Assembly: GCA_048938295.1 (NCBI GenBank)
Contig: JBHLMI010000023.1
Location: 28,790 to 46,555, forward strand
DNA: 17,766 bases
DNA from: Promethearchaeota archaeon
GTDB taxonomy: Archaea > Asgardarchaeota > Hermodarchaeia > Hermodarchaeales > Hermodarchaeaceae
Reading direction: 5' to 3'
In this document: piece after piece, positions 3,050 to 8,004 of the stretch
How positions within the stretch are numbered: the stretch's first letter is position 1
Layout: every line of letters starts with the position of its first letter
Notes under the pieces: model-generated
What the model was told of the DNA's origin: nothing
Databases searched by the model: none
The model's input: the letters and a program-made list of their open reading frames with translations, nothing else
Position numbers and translations under genes: made by a program

Positions 3050-4324
3050 ATGAAACCTGAAGATATGCGCCGGGATCTACCCATCACACAGCAGTACATC
3101 TATTTTGACAATGCTGCCACGACTCCAGTTCCAAACCCAGTCATCGATGCAATGATTGAGTACTTCGAGGAGTATTGTGCGAATGTGGAAAGGGGAGCTT
3201 ACTCCATTGCTGCTAAAGCCTCAGACATGTGTGATGCCGCACGAGAGGAAATCGCAACCAATCTCTTGCATTGTGATGCTGAAGAGTTCATCTTCACCAG
3301 AAATCAAACCGAAGCTGCAAACCATGTTGCTTACGCCTTAGAACATCCATTCCTCAATCGATGGAGCACCGGTTTCAAATTCTCACCCCCCTTGGTGAAG
3401 TGGACCCCAGAAAGCACAATCCTAACTACGCTCATTGAACACCATTCGAATTTCATGCCTTGGATGCGGTTAGCAAAACACGTGAATGCGCAATTCCACA
3501 CTATCACCCCAACAATGGAAGGACGCCTAACACCAGATATGTTTACAGAGGCAGTGGATGAAAATACAAAGCTTGTAGCGTTTCAACATGCCTCCAATGC
3601 TATGGGCACCAAACATGATGTTCATGCCATCATTCGTGCCATAAAGTCCGCTAATCCAAGTTGCCTTGTATTTATTGATGGGGCACAAGGTGCAGGGCAT
3701 TTGCCTGTTAATGTCAAAGCACTAGGATGCGATTTCTACTCCTTCTCAGGTCATAAGGGTCCACTCGGACCACCGGGAACCGGAGGATTGTACGCTCGAG
3801 ATGAATTGCTACGGCGAATGGCACCGGCAGAGGTGGGCGGTGGCGTTATTGCCTCGGTGACTGCAGACGATTACATGCTGCGGAGTGATCACCGTGCTCG
3901 ACGCTGGGATGCGGGTACTCCAAATATCATCGGGTTAATTGCCCTGGGTGCAGCAGTCAAGTATCTGAATCGTTTTGGTATTGAAAGGATTGCAGAACAC
4001 GAACATAAACTGACAGAGCATCTTCTTGAGGGCATCCGAGACATCCCTAATGTAATTGTCTATGGTCCAAAGGAGGATATGACATGGAAAGTGGGGGCTG
4101 TCTGCTTCAACATCAAAGGCTGGGTTTCACATGATGTTAGCCTAGCGCTAGATTCCCAGTGGAAGATCTTGACCCGTGCCGGACACCATTGTTGTCAACC
4201 CCTCATGCGACTTCTCGATATCCTTGATCAGTATGGTGGCAATGTCCGCTCCAGCTTTCACTATTACAACCTGATTGAGGAAGTTGATACCCTGATTGAA
4301 GCTGTCAAAACTTTGGCAGGTTAG
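3050..4324 (+). CDS. sufS: Class II (SufS/CsdA-type) PLP-dependent cysteine desulfurase
   Basis: YFDNAATT, EHHSN, IDGAQ, PLP-lysine motif SGHKGPLGPPGTGGLY, class II catalytic motif RAGHHC. GGAGG RBS 6 nt before the ATG. Confidence 0.9.
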   Translation: MKPEDMRRDLPITQQYIYFDNAATTPVPNPVIDAMIEYFEEYCANVERGAYSIAAKASDMCDAAREEIATNLLHCDAEEFIFTRNQTEAANHVAYALEHPFLNRWSTGFKFSPPLVKWTPESTILTTLIEHHSNFMPWMRLAKHVNAQFHTITPTMEGRLTPDMFTEAVDENTKLVAFQHASNAMGTKHDVHAIIRAIKSANPSCLVFIDGAQGAGHLPVNVKALGCDFYSFSGHKGPLGPPGTGGLYARDELLRRMAPAEVGGGVIASVTADDYMLRSDHRARRWDAGTPNIIGLIALGAAVKYLNRFGIERIAEHEHKLTEHLLEGIRDIPNVIVYGPKEDMTWKVGAVCFNIKGWVSHDVSLALDSQWKILTRAGHHCCQPLMRLLDILDQYGGNVRSSFHYYNLIEEVDTLIEAVKTLAG

Positions 4325-4326
4325 AG

Positions 4327-5079
4327 TCACTTAGGTGCTTGACATTCTCCACAAACAGGACAGTCATTGTGACGTGCGATTTGAAATTGATCAAACCTGA
4401 GCTCATTTAGGTCAATGAAAAGGATGTTCCCCGCCAGACGAGGAGCTAATCCTAGGATGAGGTAAAGCGCTTCATGGACTTGGATATTCGCCACTACTCC
4501 GAGCAACGTTGGGTACACTCCGATTGTTTCACATGTGGGTTGTTGGGCATCATCAACACCACCGTAGATGCATTCTAAACAGGCAGTTTTACCAGGAATA
4601 ATGGTTGTAATGTTCCCTGTGGCCCCTAATGCTCCAGCGAACACGTAAGGAATCCCTTGTCTGCAGCAGGCCTGGTTAAGTAGGTAGCGTGGGGCAAATC
4701 GATCGAGCCCATCTACAACAAGGTCGACGCCTTTAATGAATTCATCAACAGTATTTGCGGTTAGTCGTTGTTCAATTGGTTCGATCCTCACACTTGGATT
4801 AAGTGGTTGCAAGCGACGGGCTGCCAGATGCACCTTAGGGGCACCCACATCTTTATCACTGTAGAGAAACTGACGCTGAAGATTTGTAACATCAACCGTA
4901 TCAGGATCAATCATCCGAAGGAGCTTAACACCCAGTGTAACCAGCTTAGTGGAAGATATACTGCCCAACCCTCCGATACCGATAACGGCAACTTTGGCAT
5001 TCCGGATTTTCTGGAATCCCTTGGGTCCAATATCACGAAGTACGATAAATCGAGAATACCGGTCGGGAATTTTTGGCAT
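4327..5079 (-). CDS. ThiF/MoeB/UbaA-family E1-like adenylyltransferase
   Basis: GIGGLGS nucleotide loop, D.DTVDVTNLQRQ, DGLD...RY..N, Zn ligands CLEC and CPVC, active-site Cys in PTCETIG. GAGGAGG RBS. No rhodanese domain. Confidence 0.92.
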   Translation of the reverse strand: MPKIPDRYSRFIVLRDIGPKGFQKIRNAKVAVIGIGGLGSISSTKLVTLGVKLLRMIDPDTVDVTNLQRQFLYSDKDVGAPKVHLAARRLQPLNPSVRIEPIEQRLTANTVDEFIKGVDLVVDGLDRFAPRYLLNQACCRQGIPYVFAGALGATGNITTIIPGKTACLECIYGGVDDAQQPTCETIGVYPTLLGVVANIQVHEALYLILGLAPRLAGNILFIDLNELRFDQFQIARHNDCPVCGECQAPK

Positions 5080-5099: not shown

Positions 5100-6611
5100 T
5101 TAGAGGGCTGCCATTTGTTTTGCCTCTTCAAAAAGCTGTCGACCTTTCTTGCTGACCTCAACATTGGCTGAAGGTAATCCACGTCCCGCTGTACGGTGGA
5201 TGGTAACTAGCTCTTCTTCTTGGAGGTCGAGGAAGAATTTGTCAAGCCAAGCAGCTAGGGAAATGCCTAAGGATGGACTGAATCCAAGGTCCTTAGCTGA
5301 AACGTTGTATTTGCCTTCTACTATTTTCGTAGCAAATGTAGTCAGTACGATGTAGTGCTGATCCTTTTTGAGTAAGATATCCTGTATTCTGCTCCGCGCC
5401 TCCAATGCTTGCAACCGGTCTCGAACCTCAGCGAATCGTGCATATTCCTCTTTCATCTTCTCAATTTCTGCCAGAGCTTTTTCGAGTTGTTTCTCTAAAT
5501 CTTCCTTTTCCTTACTGAGTGCATCGCGGTCTTTGGATACTCCCTTTAGGCCTTTTTGCTGTTCTTCGAGGTCAGTAATTTTGGCTTCGTGTGCTTCTTT
5601 CAGGCTAGTCATTTCTTGCAGTCGAATCTCCAGATCTGCGATTTGTTTGTTCGCTTTAGCAGTTTCAGTTCTGGCTACTTTCAATTCATCTTGGACAGTT
5701 ACTAATTTCTCTGTATCTAATTCGGCTTGAGCTTTCACTTTGTCCAGTTTTGTGATAGATTGTTTAAGCTCAACAACCTGTTGATCTGCGGTTTCTAACT
5801 TCGCTTCTGATGCTTGTAGCTTCTGACCCTGCTCCTGGAATTGCTTTTCAAGCGTGTCTTTTGCTTCCTGAGTCTTCTGAAGCTCCGATTTCAGTGAACT
5901 GATTTCTTCTTCAAGCTTCTTCTTTGAAGCGGTTGCTGCTGCCGCAGCTGTAGCCGCAGCGGCTGTGGCTGCAGCTAGCTTCGTATTCAATTCGTCGATC
6001 TGCTTGACAGCGGCTTCACGTTCACTAAGTGCTTCCTTGCTCTCCTCTTGAATCTTGAGTAATTCGGCTTCAGCTTGTTTCAGGGATTCGGATAACTGCT
6101 TGTTGGTTTCTTGGAGCTTATCGATTCGTCGTGCATCACGAGTTGAGCGTGACTGCATTTGCTTCTCTAAATCAGCAATCTTAACCTTAGCATCGGCTAA
6201 TTCTTTCTCCAGTTCTTCTCGAGTCTTCTGTGATGCAGCGATTTCCTCGCTTAGCCGTTTCCGAAGCTCCTCACGCTCCGCTTCAGTCATTGAAGCTAAT
6301 GCACCTAATTCATCAGCTGCACCTGAGAGTCCGGCTTTGGCTTGTGTGATCTCCTGAATCTTGGCCCTGGCCTGTTCGCTGAACCGTTTCGACTCTGAGG
6401 TAACACCGTCTCGCACATCGTTGACGATTGGTCCACTCAGACGTCCAAAACCGATCTGTTCCATTCGTTGTTCCACACGGTCTGCAATCATCATTAGGCT
6501 ACGCTGGAGATCTCTAACCAGCACATCAATCGCATCGACAAGACTTGTGGTCAAAGCTTCAATTTGGCGTTTGAGTACTTCCGAACGTTGGCTTGGAGCT
6601 TCTTGCGTCAT
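5100..6611 (-). CDS. Long coiled-coil protein with an N-terminal helical domain and a probable C-terminal winged-helix domain
   Basis: 503 aa. Residues ~110-410 are E/K/Q/L-rich heptads interrupted by AAATAAAATAAAAATA. The C-terminal ~85 aa end in 'LQEEELVTIH...VEVSKKGRQLFEE', resembling a wHTH wing (L..GLV....lT.KG). No Walker A motif. AGGTGG RBS. Confidence 0.75.
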   Translation of the reverse strand: MTQEAPSQRSEVLKRQIEALTTSLVDAIDVLVRDLQRSLMMIADRVEQRMEQIGFGRLSGPIVNDVRDGVTSESKRFSEQARAKIQEITQAKAGLSGAADELGALASMTEAEREELRKRLSEEIAASQKTREELEKELADAKVKIADLEKQMQSRSTRDARRIDKLQETNKQLSESLKQAEAELLKIQEESKEALSEREAAVKQIDELNTKLAAATAAAATAAAAATASKKKLEEEISSLKSELQKTQEAKDTLEKQFQEQGQKLQASEAKLETADQQVVELKQSITKLDKVKAQAELDTEKLVTVQDELKVARTETAKANKQIADLEIRLQEMTSLKEAHEAKITDLEEQQKGLKGVSKDRDALSKEKEDLEKQLEKALAEIEKMKEEYARFAEVRDRLQALEARSRIQDILLKKDQHYIVLTTFATKIVEGKYNVSAKDLGFSPSLGISLAAWLDKFFLDLQEEELVTIHRTAGRGLPSANVEVSKKGRQLFEEAKQMAAL

Positions 6612-6794
6612 TTAACCACCTTTTTATGAACCCTTCTAGCCCTAGTTGAGCTATTGAACCTAGATAAGGTTTGCTGCGAATTGGTAAAAACTCGCTTTCT
6701 AGCTAAAACCTACGCGGTTTTCCGATTTCGAGAAACCATAGCTTTTAAAGGTAATCTTCGTATCGATTCCTCAATCAATAAAGAAGTGGTTGCT

Positions 6795-7154
6795 ATGGAA
6801 ACTGAAGATGTGTTGCAGGTTCTCCGGCGGGTCCTTGATCCTGAACACCCAGTAAACGTTGTCGAAATGGGTCTTGTCACAGAAGAAGACATTACCATCA
6901 ACGGTGATGAAATCCACATCCAATTTACTCCCACTGTTCCTCAATGCCCCATGGGTGCAGTGATTGGCATTATAATTCGGAAAGCGGTGGAAGATGAATT
7001 TCCTAAGAACAAAGTCTCTGTTCAGGTTAAACCTGGCACCCACATGCGAGAAGACGCCTGCAATTCGATGATCAACAATGATGACCAATATTATTCTGCC
7101 ATCGAGAAGCTCAATGCCTCAGGAGCTCTCGATCGACTAATTCTCAAAGAATAA
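6795..7154 (+). CDS. DUF59/MIP18-family Fe-S assembly protein, CIA2 (FAM96)-like
   Basis: DPEHP, FTPTVPQCPMGAVIGIIIR, KVSVQVKPGTH..E...N. The ATG at 6795 is preferred: the ORF-track extension from 6654 is non-conserved sequence containing a TTTAAA box at ~6754-6759. Confidence 0.85.
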   Translation: METEDVLQVLRRVLDPEHPVNVVEMGLVTEEDITINGDEIHIQFTPTVPQCPMGAVIGIIIRKAVEDEFPKNKVSVQVKPGTHMREDACNSMINNDDQYYSAIEKLNASGALDRLILKE

Positions 7155-7326
7155 GCAACCACAGATGATTCTATAAACACAATGTCAATCCCAAAGTGTC
7201 TGGAAACACTATCAGACAATATCTAGTTGGTTTGGTTTTTTCGCAAACGGAGCTGCTCTACCTTCTCCGGTGATAAAGTTTTAAGAATATATACCGCCAG
7301 ATTTTAACTGCTGGGTAGGCGTGCCG

Positions 7327-8004
7327 ATGTTGCAACCTTCTATTTATAAGAAGGAACCAGAATCTGTAACGGTTCCCAAAAACATGCTTGATGAATTCAT
7401 CAAAGCAGAGGATTTTGTCACCAAGTATTTTGAAACCTCCCGGCATCTCCCGAAAGAAGGTAAATACCTCATTGGCAACCAACGTTATGTCGCTCTTCCT
7501 GCAGAATTTGTAACGACAATGCGAGAACGAATCGCCCTCTCGGGAAGCGGAGAACTAGCTGATCTCATAATCTATGAAGTGGCGAAATATTTTGGGCAAC
7601 TAGATGCCCGAGACTATCAGCAACGCATGAATGTTCAAGATCCAGTTGGAATGCTCTCAGCAGGACCAATCCAGTTTAGCTTTCGTGGCTTCGCGCATGT
7701 TAACATCTTCTCCATCAGCAACCCAACACCCGATGAAAATTATCTGCTCGTCTATGACCACCTTAATTCCTTTGAAGTTGAAGCCGCGGAGAAGAAAAAC
7801 GAGATAACTCATTCACCACGCTGTTTCTTTAATGCAGGTTACTCAGCAGGATGGTGTGAAGAAAGTTTTGGCATACCATTGCAAGCCCGCGAAATAACCT
7901 GCCGTGCCATGGGTGATCCCTCCTGTCGTTTTGTAATGGCACACAAGAACCACATCCTCAAACACGTCACCACAGAAGAAATGGAGAAATACAAAGCACT
8001 CTAG
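7327..8004 (+). CDS. Stand-alone XylR-N + V4R (4VR) ligand-binding domain protein
   Basis: 'GKYLIGNQRYVALP' (XylR-N-like), GP..F..RG, NSFEVE, and the Zn-site pattern C..NAGYSAGW...E.TC..MGDPSCRF. ATG 7327 is preferred (GGTAGG 7 nt upstream); GTG 7321 is the alternative. Confidence 0.85.
   Translation: MLQPSIYKKEPESVTVPKNMLDEFIKAEDFVTKYFETSRHLPKEGKYLIGNQRYVALPAEFVTTMRERIALSGSGELADLIIYEVAKYFGQLDARDYQQRMNVQDPVGMLSAGPIQFSFRGFAHVNIFSISNPTPDENYLLVYDHLNSFEVEAAEKKNEITHSPRCFFNAGYSAGWCEESFGIPLQAREITCRAMGDPSCRFVMAHKNHILKHVTTEEMEKYKAL

Follow-up and report, generated by a model that had tools for sequence, protein, structure and literature searches.

A CIA2/MIP18-like DUF59 protein in a Hermodarchaeia-type Asgard genome, probably acting as a stand-alone iron-sulfur maturation factor

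We describe a 119-residue protein encoded at positions 6795-7154 on the forward strand of a 17,766-nucleotide stretch of DNA from a Promethearchaeota archaeon of the Hermodarchaeia (GenBank assembly GCA_048938295.1, contig JBHLMI010000023.1, positions 28,790 to 46,555), referred to throughout as the window. Sequence, predicted fold and phylogenetic position all assign the protein to the CIA2/MIP18-like branch of the DUF59 family; it is the sole DUF59 protein of its genome and stands alone in its genomic context. Of the prokaryotic families, this branch lies nearest to eukaryotic CIA2 (CIAO2A/B, yeast Cia2, plant AE7), and we consider it probable that its archaeal member in the window acts as a stand-alone, late factor in the maturation of iron-sulfur (Fe-S) proteins, operating through a single conserved cysteine, Cys51.

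In eukaryotes, CIA2 is the cluster-handling core that matures nuclear and cytosolic Fe-S enzymes (polymerases, helicases, primase, ABCE1), and the origin of the machinery for iron-sulfur assembly in the cytosol (CIA) to which it belongs is part of the question of eukaryogenesis. A large-scale study (Nature 2026) has reported CIAO1 and CIAO2B to be clearly Asgard-associated, with MMS19 not detected (PMC12872458); the kinship between Asgard proteins and CIA2 is thus already published and is not new here. The present analysis adds residue- and fold-level confirmation for a Hermodarchaeia-type lineage, a phylogeny in which the placement is tested explicitly, a bacterial CIA2-like clade, tests for a WD40 partner pattern and for targeting by tripeptides that came out negative, and the description of a family that combines a CIA2-like protein with ISC and Mrp components and no SUF system.

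The coding sequence (P0001; 6795-7154, forward strand, TAA stop included) opens with an ATG backed by 44 homologues, nearly all of them 119 residues long and sharing the same initiator methionine, and translation upstream of the ATG at 6795 reveals no conservation among relatives in the genus. We therefore take the 119-residue form to be the gene, rejecting a longer frame that would open with a TTG at 6654. All the motifs listed by an earlier, sequence-only reading of this DNA (DPEHP, FTPTVPQCPM..VIG..IR and a C-terminal PGTH..E...N) are present in this open reading frame (ORF). The DUF59/FeS_assembly_P core, an alpha/beta fold, occupies residues 4-78 (6804-7028) and is matched by Pfam PF01883 with an E-value of 3e-15 (56.7 bits against a cut-off of 23.5); Pfam detects this generic core alone and not the C-terminal part. 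Within the core lies the DPEHP motif (residues 15-19; 6837-6851), common to eukaryotic CIA2, in which the Asgard family shows no variation at D15, P16, E17 and P19. Residues 44-58, FTPTVPQCPMGAVIG, carry a motif of the F.PT.P.C....IG type, and the slightly longer segment of residues 44-62, FTPTVPQCPMGAVIGIIIR, contains Cys51 (codon at 6945-6947). The C-terminal extension of CIA2 type spans residues 79-119 (7029-7151), comprising a KPGTH motif with invariant G81 and H83, E86, N90 and then three helices, and aligns with the PGTHASE..VNKQL..KERVAAALEN segment of CIAO2B; its junction with the core falls within residues 73-95, KVSVQVKPGTHMREDACNSMINN.

Residue conservation follows the same lines. 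The close homologues, which derive from metagenome-assembled genomes (MAGs) labelled Thor-, Hermod-, Hod- or Promethearchaeota, are 60-91% identical among the 119-residue forms, and D15, P16, E17, P19, C51, G81, H83, E86 and N90 are invariant across the set; identity falls to 40-50% against CIA2-like proteins of other Asgard families. In an alignment spanning Asgard, eukaryotic, bacterial CIA2-like and classical DUF59 proteins, Cys51, D15 and P16 form the sole three invariant columns. Cys51 pairs with Cys86 of Drosophila CIAO2B, the single conserved cysteine of the family, as the earlier reading had anticipated in pointing to a reactive cysteine shared with CIA2, and by analogy with the CIA2 literature we propose it as an Fe-S ligand. 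The contrast that the same reading drew with classical DUF59 proteins is likewise real: in other Asgard genomes, classical copies have the sequence CYDPEIPVNIVDLGL...MTLTAPGCP...VWDPPWSP, without the PGTH extension.

Similarity to eukaryotic CIA2, judged at the sequence level, is far above chance. A phmmer search against all PDB chains ranks Drosophila galla-2/CIAO2B first (E 1.8e-19, residues 4-113), followed by human FAM96A (CIAO2A; E 7e-14, residues 5-117), whereas bacterial DUF59 proteins (TM0487, TTHB138, Rv1466, B. anthracis) match over the core only, with E-values of 1.7e-5 to 1.7e-3. This ranking favours CIA2, with which the earlier reading had suggested a close alignment. BLASTP against Drosophila busckii CG7949 yields 34% identity across all 119 residues (pairwise E 3e-26). 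An exhaustive phmmer search of 1.84 billion cluster representatives returned 1375 matches; among the best 150 of these, about 12 are short and of prokaryotic type, and the remainder look eukaryotic, with PT.PHCS and KERVAAALEN motifs and N-terminal extensions. One such eukaryotic-looking match, used in turn as a query, retrieves named CIAO2B/AE7/MIP18 proteins from insects, molluscs, nematodes, green algae, haptophytes, Balamuthia and plasmodiophorids.

The predicted fold agrees with this assignment. From 19 Asgard sequences, AlphaFold2 produced a model with a mean predicted local distance difference test (pLDDT) score of 93.7 and values above 90 over the C-terminal extension. The model comprises a helix at residues 3-10, four strands, a helix at 53-68, a strand at 73-78 and C-terminal helices at 86-94, 96-109 and 111-115, placing Cys51 on the loop that precedes helix 53-68, beside the invariant G81, H83, E86 and N90. 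Searching the PDB with Foldseek ranks CIAO2B in crystals of the CIA targeting complex (6TBN, 6TBL, 6TC0, 9UKY) first, with template modelling (TM) scores of 0.89-0.92 (0.91) and a root-mean-square deviation of 1.6-1.8 Å over some 120 columns that include the C-terminal helices, ahead of monomeric FAM96A (TM 0.83) and of bacterial DUF59 structures (TM 0.48-0.60). Because the overlay extends over the C-terminal part, the three C-terminal helices belong to the CIAO2B fold. In the ESM Atlas, a fold search returned only the protein's own cluster, and a feature search pointed, as leads only, to a cluster rich in Bathyarchaeota at 0.92 and one rich in Thermodesulfobacteriota at 0.85.

A maximum-likelihood phylogeny, the check that the sequence-only reading had proposed, was inferred with IQ-TREE under LG+C20+F+G4 with posterior mean site frequencies (PMSF) from 87 rows and 126 columns. 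The rows comprised 34 eukaryotic proteins (10 of them named), 21 Asgard proteins of PGTH type including the query, 7 other archaeal or metagenomic proteins, 6 of a divergent type found in the Asgard families f16 and f19, 7 of bacterial/Heimdall type and 12 classical DUF59 proteins. Eukaryotic representatives that were partial or of odd length were left out and the unnamed ones thinned at random; the classical outgroup consists of proteins from Asgard genomes and one metagenomic protein, which limits the tree. Classical DUF59 is separated from all else by a 100/100 split on a branch of 2.7 substitutions per site, with the query on the side of eukaryotic CIA2. The protein hence does not fall within classical DUF59, and PG[TS]H is confined to the CIA2-like clade, so that neither observation held in advance to speak against a CIA2 affinity was made in strict form. 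Inside the CIA2-like superclade, the bacterial/Heimdall clade (99/89) is basal and eukaryotic CIA2 is monophyletic (100/100). The best tree places eukaryotes as sister to a Thorarchaeota clade (95/89), with the query's clade in the next group out (69/89). We do not accept this sister relationship as established, since the approximately unbiased (AU) test does not reject a tree in which all these archaeal sequences are monophyletic and eukaryotes lie outside (delta lnL 15.8, p 0.273) and the alignment offers only 126 columns. What can be defended is that eukaryotic CIA2 branches either as sister of an archaeal clade dominated by Asgard proteins or from within it.

The host genome (2.52 Mb, 66 contigs, 91.6% complete) contains a single DUF59 domain, that of the CIA2-like protein. 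Surveying 301 Asgard genomes sampled across the phylum, we obtained a match in 102. Full-length CIA2-like copies occur in 12 of 18 genomes of the protein's own family (f1), in 39 of 76 of Thorarchaeaceae (f6, Thorarchaeota by NCBI names), in all five Jordarchaeia (f7), in both Wukongarchaeota (f3) and also in families f10, f17 and f18; a Ranarchaeia copy exists as well. The gene was not found in the well-sampled families f9 (0/68), f21 (0/21) and f27 (0/11), and some Asgard genomes, for example in f2, hold only a classical copy ending VWDPPWSP. Some Thorarchaeota matches carry flags for in-frame stops; the proteins concerned terminate around query residue 111-112, and we therefore take the flagged stops to be the genes' own ends, overrun by the alignment. 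Families f16 and f19 carry a divergent extended DUF59 protein (L033-L039) in which W.PT.PFCP(L/M) is found and D.SV.TA.(Y/F)WN.QLSN replaces PGTH; this form makes up a long-branched 100/100 clade within the CIA2-like superclade, and its genomes all encode SufB/D, most of those in f19 also encoding a classical DUF59 protein.

Beyond Asgard archaea, relatives were sought in a genome scan that used a narrow alignment, covering only the divergent bacterial/Heimdall type and not the PGTH type. Extended CIA2-like proteins are found in eight MAGs labelled Deltaproteobacteria, Syntrophaceae, Thermodesulfobacteriota or Proteobacteria and in two Actinomycetota records, one a MAG and the other a Candidatus Hakubella. 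The extended architecture is rare in prokaryotes, and it is not exclusive to Asgard archaea and eukaryotes. The earlier description of the protein as eukaryotic-signature-like accordingly stands as regards its CIA2-like identity and gives way as regards exclusivity, the extended form being present also in Thermodesulfobacteriota, in Actinomycetota and in a Nanoarchaeota MAG. The bacterial clade (L083-L093) consists of DUF59 proteins of about 117 residues with a CIA2-like C-terminal extension and the pattern DPDLRD...KEGHYQQ..VNQIL; its members derive from Thermodesulfobacteriota/Syntrophaceae MAGs, one Heimdallarchaeota copy groups with it, and the Actinomycetota protein (Candidatus Hakubella) is more distant. 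The Nanoarchaeota (DPANN) protein (P0061/P0198, RLG16983.1) is 320 residues long and fuses an N-terminal domain, which we take to be HAD-like from its first residues, to a CIA2-like DUF59 domain.

The complement of Fe-S assembly genes in the host genome frames the role that we propose. An IscS-IscU operon is present, together with a P-loop protein of the Mrp/ApbC/Nbp35 type bearing a CPHC motif and a SufS-family cysteine desulfurase within the window (3050-4324, forward strand), whereas SufB/D was not found in this 91.6%-complete genome and is absent from 17 of the 18 genomes of the family. Comparison of gene neighbourhoods between Asgard families revealed no conserved operon partner: within-family synteny around the gene is high, and the neighbours differ from one family to another, being coiled-coil and V4R genes in the protein's own genus, LarC, LarB-like and carbamoyltransferase genes in Jordarchaeia and f18, and unknown and GNAT genes in Thorarchaeota. 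A search for longer, fused forms found none, which counts as weak evidence by the tool's own rating. Under the reading that we favour, the protein would be a small, soluble, late-acting maturation factor: a cluster built by the IscS-IscU pair would be carried by the Mrp/ApbC/Nbp35-type P-loop protein, and Cys51 would transiently ligate the pre-assembled cluster, probably [4Fe-4S], before handing it to apo-proteins. It probably works without the adaptors CIAO1 and MMS19 and without tripeptide signals for targeting complex recognition (TCR) on its clients, and may thus represent a pre-eukaryotic state of the last CIA step.

Several points weigh against this proposal. Both the binding of a cluster by Cys51 and the route from IscU through Mrp to the CIA2-like protein are drawn by analogy, and a single cysteine cannot ligate a cluster alone, calling for a partner or for a dimer such as domain-swapped FAM96A forms. 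Calls of absence rest on a MAG that is 91.6% complete. As regards the adaptors, no match to MMS19_N or MMS19_C (PF14500, PF12460) was found in the genome with models for which the control genomes gave no positive control, and a divergent equivalent of CIAO1 is possible, Pfam holding no CIAO1-specific model. Finally, the co-occurrence of CIA2-like and SufB genes in Thorarchaeaceae would fit a SufT-like link to SUF in that family.

A more specific form of the same idea, which we put forward only tentatively, would make the CIA2-like protein the factor that inserts clusters at the end of a minimal proto-CIA route (from scaffold to P-loop carrier to CIA2) in this SUF-less family, where an IscS-IscU pair, an Mrp/Nbp35-type carrier and a single CIA2-like protein are the Fe-S assembly genes detected. 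If true, such a route would be the ancestral late step to which eukaryotes later added CIAO1, MMS19, Nar1 and tripeptide targeting; in a bolder sub-case, the protein would already pair with the only WD40 protein of the lineage.

Among the alternatives, an ordinary SufT-type role, in which the protein would be an accessory of the SUF system and its C-terminal extension would carry no special meaning, is improbable. The protein does share the DUF59 core with such accessories and weakly matches the NCBIfam models TIGR02945 (SUF_assoc) and TIGR03406 (SufT), but its scores of 45.2 and 44.1 bits fall far under the curated cut-offs (143.4 and 202.6, respectively). The W/DPPW ending of the classical copies is missing, and the 100/100 split also separates the protein from them. 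The CIA2-like gene co-occurs with SufB in most of the Thorarchaeaceae, Jordarchaeia, Wukongarchaeota and f18 genomes that carry it; in Thorarchaeaceae, 27 genomes have both, 12 the CIA2-like gene only, 5 SufB only and 32 neither, counts that come from related genomes and do not amount to a statistical test. In the 91.6%-complete host genome, and in all but one of its family, no SufB/D was found, and the protein is therefore not a SUF accessory here.

We regard as very doubtful a second alternative, in which the protein would be the core of a primordial CIA targeting complex, binding a single seven-bladed WD40 protein as CIAO2B binds CIAO1 and recruiting Fe-S clients. The only WD40 protein of the genome is encoded 5.9 kb upstream of the CIA2-like gene, an arrangement retained in six relatives of the genus, and CIAO1 has likewise been reported as Asgard-associated (PMC12872458). 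The whole 20-kb region is nonetheless syntenic within the genus, so that proximity carries little information, and the solved structures that best match the WD40 protein are generic ones (a Nostoc WD40 protein, designed repeats, WDR5), CIAO1 not being among the best 60. Nor do the two genes travel together across Asgard archaea: Jordarchaeia (0/5) and Wukongarchaeota (0/2) carry the CIA2-like gene with no WD40 match at E<=1e-10, and full-length relatives of the WD40 protein (27-45% identical) occur in f9, f21 and f27, families in which the CIA2-like gene did not turn up. A predicted complex of the two proteins scored 0.01 against a mark of 0.32 in a run made without controls, and carries no weight either way. 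The WD40 gene itself lies at 7-903 of the window (forward strand), in the locus G000 C23:28610-29692, and encodes 298 residues forming seven blades with highly consensus-like repeats; just upstream of the window, a run of N is flanked by a duplicate of roughly the first 26 codons of the gene, apparently an artefact of scaffolding.

Evidence from the protein surface and from potential clients bears on the same alternative. The peptide pocket and groove of Drosophila CIAO2B are reported to involve residues Ala138, Asn141 and Leu144 (10.64898/2026.04.06.716496). Ala102 of the window protein, which hardly varies in the Asgard family, is the aligned counterpart of Ala138, but Asn141 and Leu144 are replaced by Lys105 and Ala108. 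The eukaryotic N-terminal extension is also absent, the protein starting two residues before its first helix. In addition to MMS19, a Nar1-type Fe-hydrogenase domain (PF02906) went unmatched in the 91.6%-complete genome. C-termini of the form [LIM]-[DES]-[WF] are not in excess, occurring in 3 of 2162 long ORFs against 4.1 expected from their internal frequency, and C-terminal tryptophan is under-represented (0.69% against 1.35% overall). This agrees with a report that archaeal homologues of CIA clients lack the tripeptide signal. The earlier proposal of an archaeal orthologue of the CIA targeting-complex core consequently survives in part: sequence, fold and tree place the protein on the CIA2-like branch, while partners, TCR-like tails and the N-terminus leave a targeting-complex function unsupported.

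Most unlikely of all is a sulfur-relay module in which the protein would serve, together with the neighbouring SufS and a ThiF/MoeB/UbaA E1-like protein, in a process such as thiolation through a ubiquitin-like carrier rather than in Fe-S delivery: the SufS (3050-4324) and E1-like (4327-5079) genes do lie 1.7-3.7 kb from the CIA2-like gene, an E1-like gene is found some 2 kb from it in three Thorarchaeota loci (L070, L072, L074) and a class-V aminotransferase gene of the cysteine-desulfurase family abuts a divergent CIA2-like gene in a Heimdallarchaeota MAG (L076), but the genes of the window are on different strands with a coiled-coil gene between them and hence do not form an operon, unrelated genes (LarC, a LarB-like AIR carboxylase, a carbamoyltransferase) surround the CIA2-like gene in Jordarchaeia and f18, and no DUF59 protein is known to take part in ubiquitin-like sulfur transfer, which also counts against the idea.

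The neighbourhood offers some further observations. The genes for the SufS-family desulfurase (forward strand) and the MoeB/ThiF/UbaA-type E1-like protein (reverse strand) are arranged tail to tail, 2 nt apart, over 3050-5079, and are followed by a gene for a 503-residue coiled-coil protein at 5100-6611 (reverse strand). The divergent intergenic region of 183 nt between the latter and the CIA2-like gene contains the sequence TTTTAAA at 6743-6749 (forward strand), 46-52 nt 5' of the ATG, which, read by eye, could be an archaeal TATA box. Immediately downstream of the CIA2-like gene, at 7321-8004 (forward strand), lies a gene for a small-molecule-binding protein of the V4R/XylR_N type, kept in four of six genus relatives and absent from two (L061, L062). 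Elsewhere, in Jordarchaeia and f18, the CIA2-like gene has on one side a LarC-type nickel-insertion gene, followed further out by a LarB-like AIR-carboxylase gene, and on the other an aspartate/ornithine carbamoyltransferase gene, all on one strand and in an order (L064:8776-12423) repeated in L065, L068 and L073, which may hint at a connection with the synthesis of the nickel-pincer cofactor.

These results show, down to individual residues and in the predicted fold, that the CIA2 architecture existed in Asgard archaea, including the C-terminal helices that form the client-peptide pocket in eukaryotes; partners and targeting code seem to be later, eukaryotic additions. The value of the finding is limited in that the Asgard link has been published, that a few bacteria and DPANN archaea have proteins of a similar kind, and that the tree does not single out one archaeal lineage as nearest to eukaryotes. 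As a small, soluble and well-conserved protein, the product of this gene is nevertheless suited to probing what CIA2 does alone.

Set beside known systems, the protein shares with eukaryotic CIA2/MIP18 (CIAO2B, also known as FAM96B, galla-2, Cia2 or AE7, and CIAO2A or FAM96A; structures 6TBN, 6TBL, 6TC0, 9UKY, 2M5H and 3UX2) the DUF59 core followed by C-terminal helices, the motifs DPEHP, F.PT.P.C....IG..IR and PG[TS]H..E..N, and the single conserved cysteine. It differs in lacking the N-terminal extension of 35-200 residues, in the residue that follows the cysteine (CP as opposed to the eukaryotic CS) and in the replacement of KERVAAALEN by D.QY.SAIEKL. Classical DUF59/SufT proteins (TM0487, 1UWD; TTHB138, 2CU6; B. 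anthracis, 3LNO) and PaaD have in common with it the PF01883 core, DPE, the conserved cysteine and, as presumed here, an auxiliary role in the maturation of Fe-S proteins, but end in V.W(D/E)PPW.P..M and are devoid of the PGTH helical extension. The bacterial CIA2-like clade, at about 33% identity, retains that extension with G-H and N at the same positions, and has DPD(L/Y)RD in place of DPEHP and (E/P)GH.Q where the window protein has PGTH. The closest counterparts are the CIA2-like proteins of other Asgard archaea (Thorarchaeota, Jordarchaeia/Freyarchaeota, Wukongarchaeota, Ranarchaeia), annotated by NCBI as "DUF59 domain-containing" or "iron-sulfur cluster assembly protein", which display the same architecture in 111-125 residues with the same invariant residues. 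These relatives have lineage-specific sequence, such as the insert ITDPxM of Thorarchaeota, and gene neighbourhoods unlike that of the window, and most other Asgard families with a CIA2-like protein possess SUF, whereas the family represented in the window does not.

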